The position numbers and the translations under genes are program-made. Of a stretch of 64,000 bases of DNA, positions 1 to 63,591 are shown piece after piece; the stretch's first letter is position 1, and every line of letters begins with the position of its first letter. The stretch is taken from the IMG/VR virus record IMGVR_UViG_3300020048_003770, positions 1 through 64,000 of that record, one strand, 5' to 3'. Origin of the DNA: a virus. The notes under the pieces are model-generated. The model had not been told where the DNA came from, ran no database searches, and saw only the letters and a list, made by a program, of their open reading frames with translations.

Positions 1-116
1 TCCCTGATGCCCTGCAAGCTTAGATTTCATGTTTTTCATGATTTCAAGCAACTATCAGGGCGGTCTCATAAGCCGCTGCGTAAGCCTAGGGAGTTCGAAT
101 CTCCCTCCCGCCACCA
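1..116 (+). tRNA. 3' part of an atypical tRNA, probably CAT anticodon (Met/Ile2), with a large hairpin insertion; 5' end outside window
   Basis: T arm GGGAG-TTCGAAT-CTCCC, acceptor strand TCCCGCC-A-CCA, arm GCGGT-CTCATA-GCCGC, extra hairpin CCCTGAT...ATCAGGG. Confidence 0.5.
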
Positions 117-126
117 TTTTTCTATA

Positions 127-7796: not shown

Positions 7797-7889
7797 ATGT
7801 TTTTCATCAATCAACAGAATAATCAACAGAACCAAAATTCTGAGAGCAATCTTGGAATGGTGGTACAGATTATTCTGCTTGCAGTTTAA
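7797..7889 (+). CDS. Asn/Gln-rich attenuator leader peptide MFFINQQNNQQNQNSESNLGMVVQIILLAV
   Basis: AAGGAG RBS; codons 5-14 all Asn/Gln; followed by terminator and tRNA-Asn, -Gln, -Asn. Confidence 0.88.
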   Translation: MFFINQQNNQQNQNSESNLGMVVQIILLAV

Positions 7890-18754: not shown

Positions 18755-18844
18755 ATGAAAATGAACATAAATACAATCCATATCCCAGAACATATTGAGA
18801 TTCCCGAACCTATTGGTAAGGGTTATGGATGTGTTATGTCGTAA
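18755..18844 (+). CDS. Ile/His/Pro/Glu-rich attenuator leader peptide MKMNINTIHIPEHIEIPEPIGKGYGCVMS
   Basis: Codons 8-20 only I,H,P,E; followed by terminator and tRNA-His, -Ile, -Glu, -Pro. Confidence 0.88.
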   Translation: MKMNINTIHIPEHIEIPEPIGKGYGCVMS

Positions 18845-19915: not shown

Positions 19916-19940
19916 GTTTTGAAAAAGTTTTAAAATTTAT

Positions 19941-20015
19941 TAGGGATGAGGTGTAATGGTTTGCACATCTCGTTTGGGTCGAGAGGGAGGAGTTCGAGTC
20001 TCACATCCTTAACCA
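19941..20015 (+). tRNA. tRNA-Pro(TGG)
   Basis: Arm TCTCG-TTTGGGT-CGAGA, acceptor AGGGATG/CATCCTT, CCA. Confidence 0.82.
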
Positions 20016-26055: not shown

Positions 26056-26107
26056 TTATTGAAAAACAAAAAAAGGATTTTGGTATAATAGATTTGAATT
26101 TATAATT

Positions 26108-26191
26108 ATGAACACAAAACAGAACATATTTAGCTTTTTTAGCTTTAGACACCCTTCATGGACTTTGAAGGTTGGTTATGTTATGTTTTAA
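26108..26191 (+). CDS. Phe(/Ser)-rich attenuator leader peptide MNTKQNIFSFFSFRHPSWTLKVGYVMF
   Basis: FSFFSF run; followed by terminator and tRNA-Phe. Confidence 0.85.
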   Translation: MNTKQNIFSFFSFRHPSWTLKVGYVMF

Positions 26192-26213
26192 TATAATTAA
26201 AGCCAATTTAAAA

Positions 26214-26247
26214 AGAGCCCATGAATTAAGTTTCGTGGGCTTTTTTT
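26214..26247 (+). terminator. Attenuator terminator 3
   Basis: AGCCCATGAA/TTCGTGGGCT plus U tract; 5' arm pairs alternatively with TTCATGGACTTT 26155-26166. Confidence 0.88.
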
Positions 26248-26255
26248 GTTTTATT

Positions 26256-26331
26256 GGAGGTTGCGTAGGTATGGTTATTACGTCGAACTGAAAATTCGAA
26301 GAATCCGGTCCGATTCCGGAAGCCTCCACCA
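26256..26331 (+). tRNA. tRNA-Phe(GAA)
   Basis: Acceptor GGAGGTT/AGCCTCC, arm TCGAA-CTGAAAA-TTCGA, CCA. Confidence 0.88.
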
Positions 26332-26375
26332 ATTTTGAAAAAGGGATAATAGTTCTCATGATAGAAATAAGTATT

Positions 26376-28274
26376 ATGAGAATTTTCCGTCAAGCAATAA
26401 CTAAACAAATTAAAGAACAGGTTTCAACTAGAGAAGAATTACCGTTCAATAATATTTTTGATGATGATAACCTGAGAATTGTCATTCCTATTCAAAGTGA
26501 AAAAATTCAATATATACTGAATTCTCTTAAGCATGGACAAACAAAAACAGGGACGAAATACCAAATTGATTTAGATAATAAAATTGCCTATCGTTTAATC
26601 AAAAATGAGAGTGGAGACTTTGTTTTAGACCCAAGACCTATGCGATTAGGCAAGGTGATTCATAAAGAACTTGGCGACAAATGGGCAGACGCATGGAGTA
26701 TTGAAATTGCTAGTAAAGACAGTGAGGGTAAATCCATCATTTTGTCAAGATCTCCAGTCGATGTTGTCAGAATGAGTGATCATACTTGGGAGTCTTGTCA
26801 TAGCCCTGGTGAAAATTATTTTGACAGTGCAATACAGGAGGCTATAGGCGGTGGAGCGGTAGCTTATGTTGTAAATAATCAAGATATTGATGATTTTATA
26901 AAACGAAATGGCAACGACGAAATGGCGCTTCAATCAGAAGAAATTTTCAGAGACGACGATAGGGGCATTGAAGGCATTGTCCCATTGTCAAGAATAAGAG
27001 TAAACAGATACGTGAGTGATGATGGAGATGAACTAGCCTTGCCGGTTACGAGGACTTATGGCGAAAAATCTTCTGGATTTCTTGATACTGTAACTGATTG
27101 GCTTAAGGAAAAACAGTCCAAAACGATTGATTATGATAGATTGAATATGAAACAATATGAGAGAACTGGAGGAATGTACGCAGATGATCCAGATCGTAAG
27201 ATAATGACTAATTTCTTTGGTAATGCTAAAGGTGTTACAAATGATTTACCTCACAAAGGAGGAGAATCGAGACTTCAAATATGGGATACCGAATTATATC
27301 AGATGAAAGAAGTTATAAATGAACAGTTAAAGCATTCTAGTGTTACTTATTTTATCGATGAGGTAGATAACCATGTTTTTATTTCCGGTGAAGGATATAT
27401 TGATTTTGCATTTCGTGGATATGTCGATGAAACTCAAGATGGTTTAGAGGATTTATTTAATAATTTTAAAAGCACGTTACAAGTTAATTATTGTGGCTAT
27501 GTTGATGAAATTGGCATTACAAATGAAAATGGAATAGCTAGGTTATCTTTGAGAATTACAATGGATCAAAACGATTCTATTAATGATCCTGATGATTGGC
27601 AAAGTAGAGCGGAAAGATTTGTATATTATGAAGAAACATTTTATCATCAAGATATTGAACATTTAAAAAACATTTTAATTGAAAAGTCGATATTGGAAAG
27701 CGTTGATGAGGTAGAAGATAAAGAAGAGTATTTGGCGAATCATATAAATGATGGCAATGGTATTCATAGCGGCGGGAATGATATTGATTTGTTTTTCAAT
27801 ACCGGAATTAAACTTCCAAAAATGACGGCAGGGGTAAATCAACCTTTAAAGGATCTTGTAAGCAATGTGTTTCTTGAATCGTTGCAAAGGAATGTAAATG
27901 CCAAATATTCAAATGTAAGTGGACAAATGAATTTTGATTTTTACGCCAATCAAGAGCTACAGTATAAAGACCCAAAATTTCATATGGATATGTCAATCGT
28001 AAAGCCGAATTATTACATTTCTTTTGCGAATTATGATTATCTTGCCAATTTTCGCATACAAATTCCATATTCTGAAATTTATCGTTTAGGTAAGACATAT
28101 TTTGATTTATTGTTGAAATCTTATGATGCTATATATAATGATATATATCGTGCGACTAAACAGTATATGGATAATTATAATTTGACTGTGAACAAGGGAA
28201 CAACAGCGGGGAAACTGAATTGGTATGATTTATGTAAATTGTCCCATTCAATTAACAAAAGGGAGATGGAATGA
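26376..28274 (+). CDS. Large hypothetical protein, possibly virion-associated
   Basis: MRIFRQA N-terminus, RMSD...WESCH motif, C-terminal NWY motif. Confidence 0.6.
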   Translation: MRIFRQAITKQIKEQVSTREELPFNNIFDDDNLRIVIPIQSEKIQYILNSLKHGQTKTGTKYQIDLDNKIAYRLIKNESGDFVLDPRPMRLGKVIHKELGDKWADAWSIEIASKDSEGKSIILSRSPVDVVRMSDHTWESCHSPGENYFDSAIQEAIGGGAVAYVVNNQDIDDFIKRNGNDEMALQSEEIFRDDDRGIEGIVPLSRIRVNRYVSDDGDELALPVTRTYGEKSSGFLDTVTDWLKEKQSKTIDYDRLNMKQYERTGGMYADDPDRKIMTNFFGNAKGVTNDLPHKGGESRLQIWDTELYQMKEVINEQLKHSSVTYFIDEVDNHVFISGEGYIDFAFRGYVDETQDGLEDLFNNFKSTLQVNYCGYVDEIGITNENGIARLSLRITMDQNDSINDPDDWQSRAERFVYYEETFYHQDIEHLKNILIEKSILESVDEVEDKEEYLANHINDGNGIHSGGNDIDLFFNTGIKLPKMTAGVNQPLKDLVSNVFLESLQRNVNAKYSNVSGQMNFDFYANQELQYKDPKFHMDMSIVKPNYYISFANYDYLANFRIQIPYSEIYRLGKTYFDLLLKSYDAIYNDIYRATKQYMDNYNLTVNKGTTAGKLNWYDLCKLSHSINKREME

Positions 28275-29584
28275 TAAAGAGCTATGTTTTGGATACGAAT
28301 GTGTTATTGTCAGACCCAGAAGCGATGTTTAATTTTGAAGATAACAATGTAATAATACCAATCGGAGTTATTGAAGAATTAGATCGGTTTAAAAAAGACC
28401 AAAGCGAGTTGGGTAAAAATGCTCGTCAAATATCTAGATTATTGGATGATTTAAGGCTTAAAGGTGATTTGAGAGAAGGTGTTAAGGTCGGTGACGGTAA
28501 GGTAATGGTACGCTATAATGGCAATTTAGAGTCTTACCTTAAAGAGAATAATGTTGATTTACATGTAATTCATATTGCTCAAAAGACGATGGACAGTGAC
28601 CCTGAAACGCCTTGCATTGTTGTTTCGAGAGATGTAAACGTAAGAATAAGAGCAAATGCGTTGGGGATAAAAGCGGAAAATTATGAAAGCGACCAAATCC
28701 CTCACGAAGAGATAGATAAAGGGTATAGTGAAATATTATTCGATGATAAATCGTTTGATGAGTTTGCGCAAGAGGGTAAAGTTAGAATAAACGATGTAAT
28801 GGATGAAGAAACCAAGAGACAAATCTTCCCTAATGAATATTTTATGATTTACAATAATAGTGGGTCTACATTGTTGGGTAGAGTCGATCCATATGTAACT
28901 GTTTTAAGGAAGTTAATATCTTGTCCTAACGGGATTGGTGTTATGCCAAAGAATAAAGAACAGTCATTTTTAATTGATGCGCTTTTAGATAATGATATAA
29001 AATTGGTATCCATTGTTGGAATTGCAGGCTCTGGGAAAACTATATTAAGTTCGGCAATTGGCTATTATTTGGTAGTTAATAAAAAAGATTACAAGCGATT
29101 ATTGATAAGTCGTCCTGTTTTTCCAATGGGTAAAGACTTAGGTTATTTACCAGGATCGGTCGATGAAAAGCTTGCGCCATGGATGTGTCCGATATATGAT
29201 GCGTTTGATGTAATTAAAGAACACGCTAATTCTAATGTCAAATCGGGCGTTACTGGGAAAAGCATTGTTGATGGGAATAGCGTAGTGGTGGAGCCATTGA
29301 CATACATTAGAGGAAGAAGCATTCGTGACCAGTTTCTTATTGTCGATGAATCTCAAAACTTAAATGTCCATGAGATTAAAACAATTATAACTAGAGCCGG
29401 AGATAACACGAAAGTTGTATTGACTGGCGATATATATCAAATAGACAATCCCTATATTGATAGTTTGTCGAATGGTTTATCTAGTGTTGTAAAGAATATG
29501 AGAGATTCAAAATTATCCGCTCATATAGTATTATCAAAGGGCGTTCGGTCTGAATTGGCGGAAGAAGCATCTCGTAAACTATAA
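28271..29584 (+). CDS. phoH: PhoH2 (PIN domain plus PhoH ATPase)
   Basis: VLDTNVLL, GIAGSGKT, LGYLPG, YIRGRS, DESQN, GD..QID. Confidence 0.93.
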   Translation: MIKSYVLDTNVLLSDPEAMFNFEDNNVIIPIGVIEELDRFKKDQSELGKNARQISRLLDDLRLKGDLREGVKVGDGKVMVRYNGNLESYLKENNVDLHVIHIAQKTMDSDPETPCIVVSRDVNVRIRANALGIKAENYESDQIPHEEIDKGYSEILFDDKSFDEFAQEGKVRINDVMDEETKRQIFPNEYFMIYNNSGSTLLGRVDPYVTVLRKLISCPNGIGVMPKNKEQSFLIDALLDNDIKLVSIVGIAGSGKTILSSAIGYYLVVNKKDYKRLLISRPVFPMGKDLGYLPGSVDEKLAPWMCPIYDAFDVIKEHANSNVKSGVTGKSIVDGNSVVVEPLTYIRGRSIRDQFLIVDESQNLNVHEIKTIITRAGDNTKVVLTGDIYQIDNPYIDSLSNGLSSVVKNMRDSKLSAHIVLSKGVRSELAEEASRKL

Positions 29585-46609: not shown

Positions 46610-46702
46610 ATGAATATGAACAAGCAAATAATAGGTATAGGAATAGCGGGAGCCTGCGGCGGAGCTGCAAGGCTACGGACTTTCTATGTCTGTTTATGCT
46701 AA
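46610..46702 (+). CDS. Ile(ATA)/Gly/Ala-rich attenuator leader peptide MNMNKQIIGIGIAGACGGAARLRTFYVCLC
   Basis: Codons 7-20 are I,G,A except one C; all four Ile are ATA; downstream tRNA-Ala, -Gly and a TAT-anticodon RNA. Confidence 0.87.
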   Translation: MNMNKQIIGIGIAGACGGAARLRTFYVCLC

Positions 46703-61682: not shown

Positions 61683-61760
61683 ATGTATATTAAAACGAAA
61701 ACAGTAGAAAAAGCAACGGTATTCAAAAAAACCGTTATGGGCTTATTCTGTTTTGTTTAA
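61683..61760 (+). CDS. Lys/Thr/Val-rich attenuator leader peptide MYIKTKTVEKATVFKKTVMGLFCFV
   Basis: 12 of codons 4-18 are K,T,V; followed by terminator and tRNA-Lys, -Val, -Thr, -Thr. Confidence 0.88.
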   Translation: MYIKTKTVEKATVFKKTVMGLFCFV

Positions 61761-61777
61761 GTACAAAATAGATTTTT

Positions 61778-61810
61778 AAAAGCCCGTAAGTGTTACTTGC
61801 GGGCTTTTTT
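61778..61810 (+). terminator. Attenuator terminator 5
   Basis: AAAAGCCCGTAAGT/ACTTGCGGGCTTTT; 5' arm pairs alternatively with TTATGGGCTT 61735-61744. Confidence 0.9.
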
Positions 61811-61847
61811 GTTTTATTTAATGGTAATTTGGGGGATAGAATAAAAT

Positions 61848-62581: not shown

Positions 62582-63193
62582 ATGAATGAAATAAAAATAG
62601 AAAATATTCAAAAATATTATAATGACGGACATTCTTGGAGAGAAGTAATTGAAGAATTCCATACGGGCTGGAAAACGATACAGAAACTAGTTAGAAGTGG
62701 GAAGTTGATTTCTAGAAGTTTATCTGAGAGTACTAAGCTGGCATATAAAATTGGGAAAATAGTAAAAGTGCATACAGAAGAAAGTAAGAAGCATCTATCG
62801 GCAATTGCAAAGAAAAGGGGATTGGGTGGCGATAGACCGAGTAAGCATATTGAATATAACGGCTTTAAATTATGTTCGACATATGAATTGAGAGTTGCAA
62901 AAATTTTAGATAAAAGTGAAATAAAATGGATAAAACCAAAAACTACGTTTGGGTGGACTGATTTAAATAACGAAAAACACACATACCATCCGGACTTTTT
63001 TTTGCCGGATTTTAATGTCTATTTAGATCCGAAAAACAGTTATTGCATAGAAAGAGATAAAGAAAAAATTAAAAGGGTTAGAATGGAGAATATGGTTAGC
63101 GTTTTTATTATTCCGATAGAAGTTATAAAAAAATGGGAAAATAAAATAATAATAAGCATACAAGATATAAATCAAGATACGGAAGGTTTGTAG
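62582..63193 (+). CDS. PD-(D/E)xK homing-type endonuclease
   Basis: STYE, YHPDFFL..FNVYLDPK; N-terminal HTH and HTEESK repeat. Confidence 0.8.
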   Translation: MNEIKIENIQKYYNDGHSWREVIEEFHTGWKTIQKLVRSGKLISRSLSESTKLAYKIGKIVKVHTEESKKHLSAIAKKRGLGGDRPSKHIEYNGFKLCSTYELRVAKILDKSEIKWIKPKTTFGWTDLNNEKHTYHPDFFLPDFNVYLDPKNSYCIERDKEKIKRVRMENMVSVFIIPIEVIKKWENKIIISIQDINQDTEGL

Positions 63194-63220
63194 TTCTAAG
63201 GTGAAGGACATATGTCAAAA

Positions 63221-63264
63221 TTTGTAATAAGAACTATGGGGTTTCGATACCTCTGCCGGCTCCA
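63221..63264 (+). pseudogene. 3' half of a tRNA-Thr(TGT)-like gene; possible 5' half at 62498-62532
   Basis: TTTGTAA, T arm, TGCCGGC-T-CCA. Confidence 0.45.
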
Positions 63265-63270
63265 TTTTTT

Positions 63271-63390
63271 GCCAAAGATGCTTAGGAGTTCGATTCTCCT
63301 TCGTTCCATTTGACGGGACGGATGGTTCACAAAGTGCTACGGTGACACGGTTCGCTACTGTATCGGGTTCGATTCCCGACTTTGGCTCCA
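63271..63390 (+). ncRNA. Expanded tRNA-like RNA with two T-arm-like hairpins
   Basis: GCCAAAG/CTTTGGC-T-CCA; AGGAG-TTCGATT-CTCCT and TCGGG-TTCGATT-CCCGA. Confidence 0.6.
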
Positions 63391-63591
63391 TTTTTAGAGG
63401 AATGATATGAATATAAAAAACGAGATAGAACTTGATGCCGCCCTTGAACACATAAATGATAATTGGCATTTATTAGATATTCCAGATGATGCCGATTCTG
63501 AATTGGTTACTAAACGCGATAATCTTCTTAAATTAATTTATGATGCTGAAGAGTACGAGAAGAAATATGTTTTTGATTAATATAAGTGCAT

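Follow-up and report, generated by a model that had tools for sequence, protein, structure and literature searches.

A putative ribosome-mediated attenuator ahead of a bacteriophage tRNA-Phe gene: sequence elements, predicted folds and conservation

In this study, we describe a compact unit on the plus strand of a phage genome (the Phe cassette, positions 26059 to 26331) in which a promoter, a leader ORF, an intrinsic terminator and a tRNA-Phe(GAA) gene follow one another. According to its sequence and to the predicted folding of its RNA, the cassette is probably a ribosome-mediated (leader-peptide) transcription attenuator regulating the phage's own tRNA-Phe, with the dependence of read-through on Phe being inferred. 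What was observed directly are its sequence elements, with the energies predicted for them and the degree to which they are conserved, and a match between leader codons and downstream tRNAs over five cassettes. A first-pass annotation of the same DNA had singled out the cassette as the simplest unit for experiments; it spans 273 nt and has a single matched amino acid and a single tRNA.

The window (the whole stretch of DNA that was analysed, 64,000 nucleotides) corresponds to the first 64 kb of a single contig of 161,288 bp from a virus record, with a G+C content of 34%, and no close relative of it at the DNA level was found among deposited phages. The 161-kb genome carries at least 20 tRNA genes, all of them on the plus strand and every one within the window. 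Other stretches with tRNA-like acceptor and T-arm ends (window positions 1-126, 204-302 and 63180-63400) were rejected by ARAGORN and Rfam and may be split, intron-bearing or decayed tRNAs; positions 210-286 scored 24.9 bits, and fragment matches to tmRNA models were located at 63284-63378. Additionally, a full-length tmRNA gene was found outside the window (L131:13314-13673, equivalent to genome positions 77314-77673; Rfam RF00023, 66.4 bits, E 2.7e-24), and it represents another ribosome-rescue function in a genome that appears to monitor ribosome stalling. The features of the Phe cassette and of its counterparts are provided in Table 1.

Table 1. Position and main traits of the elements of the Phe cassette, of a promoter-like site downstream and of the four sibling leaders, in window coordinates.
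Feature	Position	Strand	Traits
Cassette promoter	26059-26089	+	-35-like hexamer 26059-26064; spacer 19 nt; TGn extended -10 26081-26083; perfect -10 hexamer 26084-26089
Segment 1	26103-26149	+	5' leader RNA including start and sensor codons; predicted to pair with segment 2 (26156-26199) without ribosome
Leader ORF	26108-26191	+	27 codons; ATG at 26108; stop codon 26189-26191
Sensor run	26129-26146	+	Codons 8-13, TTT AGC TTT TTT AGC TTT (F-S-F-F-S-F)
Small hairpin P	26153-26171	+	6 bp, 7-nt loop; -8.2 kcal/mol, z -1.8 (weak)
Antiterminator hairpin	26155-26225	+	27 bp in four helices (26155-61/26219-25, 26163-66/26214-17, 26169-77/26201-09, 26180-86/26191-97); -22 kcal/mol, z -4.2
Intrinsic terminator	26209-26247	+	Core stem 26217-26225 with 26231-26240; loop 6 nt; seven U 26241-26247; A tract upstream
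tRNA-Phe(GAA)	26256-26331	+	ARAGORN; discriminator A73, encoded CCA; Rfam 30.2 bits (threshold 29)
Weak promoter-like site for next gene	26335-26362	+	9/12 match; stretch kept in L001 and L130, which lack leader and tRNA
Sibling leader	7797-7889		Rich in Asn, Gln; downstream tRNAs Asn, Gln, Asn
Sibling leader	18761-18844		Rich in His, Ile, Pro, Glu; downstream tRNAs His, Ile, Glu, Pro
Sibling leader	46610-46702		Rich in Ile, Gly, Ala; downstream tRNAs Ala, Gly
Sibling leader	61683-61760		Rich in Lys, Thr, Val; downstream tRNAs Lys, Val, Thr, Thr

If the cassette promoter is used, transcription is predicted to start near 26096, leaving the leader with a 5' untranslated region of only about 12 nt. 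The spacer of this promoter is long, which counts against the model, and the automated promoter scan, accepting only spacers of 16-18 nt, hence missed it. No Shine-Dalgarno-like 4-mer was found upstream of 26108; a motif of this type precedes 64% of the long ORFs of this genome. The run of four TTT and two AGC codons that the first-pass annotation had described in the leader was found in its place, and it consists of two identical 9-nt units in tandem. Codons 2-7, ahead of the run, specify Asn, Thr, Lys, Gln, Asn and Ile, and these amino acids are also served by phage tRNAs. The annotation had likewise placed tRNA-Phe about 10 nt after the U tract; the adjacency held, and the gap measured 8 nt. 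As so short an interval accommodates no promoter, tRNA-Phe can be transcribed only by read-through of the terminator. A -10-like hexamer at 26192-26197 was examined as a possible promoter of the tRNA gene and rejected, given that the nearest -35-like hexamer lies at a 14-nt spacer and that the transcript would still meet the terminator.

The tRNA gene fulfilled the cloverleaf criteria, with GAA in a 7-nt anticodon loop, A73 and a CCA end, and ARAGORN recognized it in all three sequence variants available. Its cloverleaf was kept in 97% of the cells of the alignment, with two compensatory pairs in the D stem of the relative L002, a pattern of substitution that indicates structural selection on the gene. 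Position 8 and the T loop are unusual and, given these atypical traits, charging of the tRNA by PheRS is an inference. Regarding other coding potential within the cassette, the minus-strand ORFs that cross it (54-67 aa) are interrupted in the relatives L002 and L003 and were therefore rejected as genes. A second, overlapping plus-strand mini-ORF, which starts at 26159, is uninterrupted in relatives; given that it lacks a ribosome-binding site and that all of its sequence is under RNA constraint, it was considered incidental.

There is no terminator after tRNA-Phe, the next one on the plus strand being located not before 30924; therefore, read-through transcripts also enter the next genes, and tRNA-Phe may not be the sole target, since these genes are fed as well. 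The gene that follows tRNA-Phe has its conserved start at 26376, not at the first ATG (26358). Its opening 44 nt (26376-26419) are invariant in three lineages that are otherwise about 78% identical, which suggests that the region around its translation start is under additional constraint. Two genes downstream of tRNA-Phe, positions 28271-29584 encode a PIN-PhoH fusion protein (Pfam PIN_4 plus PhoH), whose nearest deposited homologues, jumbo Bacillus phages among them, share at most 38% identity with it and are too distant for host assignment.

The RNA of the cassette is predicted to adopt alternative structures. Including its A/U extension, the terminator had a predicted energy of -22.7 kcal/mol (z -8.8), and 16 strong plus-strand terminators were detected in the 161 kb, one of which is this one, ending just before tRNA-Phe. 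The first-pass annotation had proposed an antiterminator pairing that competes with the terminator; the proposal was right and understated, because that pairing is only the outer helix of a 27-bp hairpin and is accompanied by a 1:2 pairing and by a competing small hairpin. The antiterminator hairpin occupies the 5' arm of the terminator and holds the stop codon of the leader at its apex, and just one in 200 dinucleotide shuffles folded as well. On its outer side, the 12-nt strand 26155-26166 pairs with 26214-26225 through 7 bp, one A.C mismatch and 4 bp that include one G.U. The pairing of segments 1 and 2 in the leader RNA alone was predicted at -20 kcal/mol (z -2.8), and a change at 26178 in relatives retains its pair as G.U. 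Hairpin P competes with the antiterminator for 26155-26158 and 26166-26171; its stem is invariant in relatives and its loop variable. From these folds, it is a candidate for a pause or anti-antiterminator element.

The effect of a translating ribosome was simulated as a 30-nt mask on nascent RNA ending at 26228 or 26233. The antiterminator was complete (-22) when Phe codons 1-3 occupied the A site, weaker (-15.3) with Phe codon 4 in it, and lost when the A site stood at 26153 or further; a mask on the stop codon led to hairpin P instead of the antiterminator. These masked folds follow the classical logic of four-segment attenuation, the selection of the antiterminator by ribosome position resting on folding only. 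It must be noted that the minimum-energy fold of the finished transcript always includes the terminator; therefore, the model depends on co-transcriptional order and kinetics. Without a ribosome, the prefix fold of the window slightly preferred the antiterminator (-24.8) to the 1:2 pairing, while that of L003 preferred 1:2, and the predicted state in the absence of translation is ambiguous in the window.

The proposed mechanism is as follows. After transcription from the promoter at 26059-26089, a ribosome would translate the 27-codon leader. With plentiful Phe-tRNA(Phe), it would cross the 5' strand of the antiterminator as far as the stop codon at the apex, where it would block the antiterminator; hairpin 26153-26171 could then close behind it, the terminator would fold and transcription would end at 26241-26247, ahead of the tRNA. 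With slow Phe decoding, the ribosome would instead stall on 26129-26146 and cover segment 1, leaving 26155-26199 free to pair with 26201-26225 once this is made. The 5' arm of the terminator would thus be captured and RNA polymerase would proceed into tRNA-Phe, which would be released from the read-through transcript by RNase P and 3' trimming. The new tRNA-Phe would relieve the stall, closing a negative-feedback loop on Phe decoding capacity. The cassette meets several criteria of an attenuator, namely an ORF between promoter and terminator, a cluster of cognate codons, a terminator before the regulated gene and, by folding, a mutually exclusive antiterminator. Two others are not met: no ribosome-binding site was recognized at the leader, and the first downstream gene is tRNA-Phe, not a biosynthesis or aminoacyl-tRNA synthetase gene. 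Leader translation, ribosome-polymerase coupling in the host and Phe-dependent read-through are all inferred. The weak points of the model are the lack of a Shine-Dalgarno sequence, the short 5' untranslated region, the few variants available and a host, and thus a transcription-translation coupling, that is unknown.

Relatives were sought with the neighbouring 638-aa protein, and the contigs encoding its homologues were compared; a metagenome scan with the terminator hairpin added one further contig (L129). The whole unit is kept in two lineages, one represented by L002 and the other by L003, L004, L005 and L129, whose neighbouring protein is 80-81% identical, and the comparison of the cassette covers only three distinct sequence variants. 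In both lineages the start, frame and stop of the leader are kept, and in L002 and L003 the promoter stands at the same place with spacers of 17 nt. The sensor run is identical in every relative with the cassette, with a third AGC directly after it in L003. Leader nucleotides 1-41 showed 100% identity in the three variants, versus 77-85% in the flanking genes and 62-77% in the promoter, and 26104-26148 is the longest invariant run in a three-way alignment of 1,679 columns. The invariant run that opens the next gene is nearly as long (44 nt), so the invariance of the leader is not unique. One leader codon located between conserved RNA strands varies among T, E and I, a change pointing to selection that would act on the RNA and not on the peptide.

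The antiterminator is kept in L002 (-27.3) and in L003 (-21.4), compared with -22 in the window. In L002 one of its helices is replaced by a 4-bp extension of the next, and the fold is stronger. Its cells were paired in 96% of cases over the three variants, versus 32-54% in slid registers. No pair was altered on both sides in these three variants, and thus there is no true covariation. Two further relatives, L001 and L130, which represent a third lineage, have lost the promoter and leader as well as the body of the tRNA, of which a 10-nt 3' remnant is left; they retain the terminator directly after the upstream gene, so that it is present in all relatives. The 5' arm of their terminator has two bases that could not pair with the antiterminator strand, were it present, and one of the two strengthens the stem of the terminator. 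The 368-kb relative L001 carries an IS605-type OrfB/TnpB gene in the upstream gene (L001:8460-9644), beside the site of the leader and tRNA-Phe deletion (L001:9700-10000), and L130 shows the same deletions with no IS605-type insertion in view. Searches of IMG/VR found no relatives of the neighbouring 638-aa protein and no match to a tRNA-Phe pattern, and a degenerate pattern of the sensor run retrieved 118 unrelated stretches, none of them followed by a tRNA. A 24-nt terminator hairpin one base off that of the window, with a different tail, ends a gene in three unrelated GC-rich metagenome contigs (L126:7785-7808, L127:3705-3728 and L128:1607-1630), which is probably a coincidence.

The two AGC codons of the sensor run deserve separate comment. 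The first-pass annotation had noted that they lack a tRNA-Ser(GCT) partner and had attributed them to a lost tRNA or to spacer codons. Indeed, neither ARAGORN nor Rfam detected tRNA-Ser(GCU) in the 161-kb genome, and the check that the annotation had proposed, a search of the orthologous locus in relatives, yielded neither gene nor remnant. A low-stringency ARAGORN prediction of this tRNA at genome positions 66512-66603 was discarded as false, as it was unconfirmed by Rfam and no other RNA signal was present in the stretch. Serine is rarely encoded by AGC in this phage (0.7% of codons), and both AGC codons of the run are invariant in the relatives with the cassette. In the predicted fold of the leader itself, the G and the C of these codons form pairs within a U-rich run, and interrupted Phe runs are normal in pheL leaders (PMC3082878). 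Given the absence of tRNA-Ser(GCU) from the genome and from the orthologous loci, a role of the AGC codons as spacers or as anchors of pairing is more likely than their being the remains of a lost tRNA. Of the two origins first proposed, the lost tRNA thus found no support and the spacer fitted better. We moderately favour a spacer role combined with the supply of G-C pairs; an additional sensing of Ser decoding by these codons is possible and rather unlikely, and a relic of a lost tRNA-Ser is doubtful.

Four further units with the same layout of promoter, 25-30-codon ORF, terminator and tRNAs were identified in the window, and all five place the stop codon at the apex of a hairpin in which the 5' arm of the terminator takes part. 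A tRNA-Pro(TGG) gene at 19940-20015 had been missed by default ARAGORN and by the fast filters of Rfam and was recovered with sensitive settings (37.3 bits), and it makes the His/Ile/Pro/Glu match of the cassette at 18761-18844 complete. The enrichment of cognate amino acids in the five leaders reached binomial P values of 5e-6, 2e-3, 6e-3 (Phe), 2e-3 and 2e-4; in the Phe leader, 5 of the 26 codons specify Phe (P = 0.006 against 4.6% Phe in long ORFs). Among the 120 permutations of leaders and tRNAs, the true pairing was the single best, with 50 matched codons; none of the other 119 exceeded 41, and full mismatches averaged 12. The Phe run alone carries little weight in this AT-rich genome, where windows with at least four Phe in six codons number 120 over the six frames and 20 on the plus strand; the chance of one lying within 150 nt upstream of the tRNA is about 0.02. 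Therefore, the case rests on the conjunction of features and not on the run, and a chance origin is not credible in view of the terminator position, the in-frame start and stop, the conservation and the four siblings. The five cassettes aligned with a mean identity of 54%, which is too weak and too AT-rich to prove paralogy.

Several other explanations must be considered. The terminator could be a constitutive leaky operon boundary giving tRNA-Phe at a fixed low level, with an untranslated ORF whose Phe codons are a by-product of AT-richness. The missing Shine-Dalgarno motif, the abundance of Phe-rich windows and the constant presence of the terminator in the full-length minimum-energy fold would agree with this, and in L001 and L130 the terminator, without leader or tRNA, can serve the upstream gene as a plain terminator. 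However, such a boundary would not require a 27-bp hairpin (z -4.2) competing for the 5' arm, nor an invariant stretch of 41 nt opening the leader, nor five in-frame leaders that match their own tRNAs and bear their stop codon at a hairpin apex, and we regard this explanation as improbable. The differing composition of the five leaders, each enriched in the set that matches its own tRNAs, would also be pointless if the leader were translated and gated the terminator while reporting general translation capacity, that is, any shortage or stall of ribosomes, and not Phe decoding. It is true that the antiterminator strand is left free in the modelled folds when the ribosome stalls anywhere within codons 1-13 or when ribosomes are lacking, and that codons 2-7 correspond to further phage tRNAs; nevertheless, we judge a general sensor to be just as improbable as the leaky boundary.

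The unit could also be a switch made of RNA only, with an incidental ORF and with direct binding of the leader RNA to a tRNA, a small RNA or a protein, in the manner of a T-box or of protein-mediated antitermination. In favour of such a switch, the antiterminator and the terminator are alternatives regardless of the factor that chooses between them, and translation has not been demonstrated. Against it, no T-box or other riboswitch family matched the cassette at E up to 1, the matching codons of 5/5 cassettes share the frame of an ATG and a stop codon, and a stop codon at the hairpin apex, also in 5/5, is sensible only for a ribosome; this possibility seems very remote to us. The codon-to-tRNA match over the five cassettes, together with the position of the stop codons, disfavours all three explanations with respect to ribosome-mediated attenuation.

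More tentatively, and with less than even confidence, the phage could run a demand-driven replacement of tRNAs in which separate mini-genes test the decoding speed of codons and switch on only those phage tRNAs in short supply, a need that could follow host anticodon nucleases or the decay of host tRNAs in the course of infection. In such a system, the Phe unit would form the smallest closed loop (one codon type, one tRNA, negative feedback), and the cassettes, as paralogues, would have had their sensor codons rewritten to follow their tRNA cargo. If attenuation does gate tRNA genes, this would be a new regulatory logic, in which a virus measures codon-specific decoding speed in the infected cell and answers with exactly the matching tRNA. 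It would bear on why large phages carry tRNAs and on when these are expressed, and it would allow tRNA depletion during infection or defence to be read out directly. Among the cassettes, the Phe unit lends itself best to cell-free testing, and recoding its four Phe codons should change its specificity.

Attenuation by leader peptides is textbook knowledge for genes of amino-acid biosynthesis and for synthetase genes, and our full-text literature searches found no description of it for tRNA genes. Rfam searches at E up to 1 gave no match to the amino-acid operon leader families (Phe, Thr, Trp, His and Leu) at 26059-26250 and no T-box match anywhere in the window; the sole amino-acid leader family match in the window was a sub-threshold one to Thr_leader on the Lys/Thr/Val cassette (61687-61813; 28.2 bits, gathering score 55, E 0.37). 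T-boxes resemble the phage unit in that an intrinsic terminator is gated by tRNA status and genes of translation supply are controlled. They differ from it in that the T-box binds uncharged tRNA directly and needs no translation, whereas the phage sensor is an in-frame ORF. The tRNA clusters of phages such as T4 and T5 also supplement host decoding with phage-borne tRNAs; to our knowledge, their gating by codon-matched leader peptides has not been described. Each sibling leader would sense between two and four amino acids, as do the multivalent leaders thrL and those of ilv; the Phe unit differs from both in having one matched amino acid and one tRNA, with AGC codons lacking a partner tRNA.

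The pheM-pheST attenuator of E. coli has a Phe-codon leader, and pheST encodes the synthetase. In both it and the phage cassette, a Phe-codon leader would adjust one component of the supply for Phe decoding to the amount of charged tRNA-Phe; the phage product is the tRNA itself, so that its loop would sense and restore tRNA supply and not charging capacity. In the pheL-pheA model, pairings 1:2, 2:3 (antiterminator) and 3:4 (terminator) are alternatives, and a stalled ribosome frees segment 2 (PMC3082878). The phage cassette shares with pheL-pheA of gamma-proteobacteria a short leader, a series of Phe codons with other residues interspersed and the same three pairing alternatives. In contrast to pheL-pheA, which regulates a biosynthetic enzyme, it would regulate a tRNA gene, its run has four Phe codons versus seven in pheL, the antiterminator carries the stop codon at its apex whereas that of pheL precedes segment 2, and the locus lies in a phage and has no sequence or structure match to an Rfam leader family. 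Being neither a member of an Rfam leader family nor a T-box, the Phe cassette is best read as working like the attenuators of the pheL and pheM type, with a phage tRNA gene as its target.
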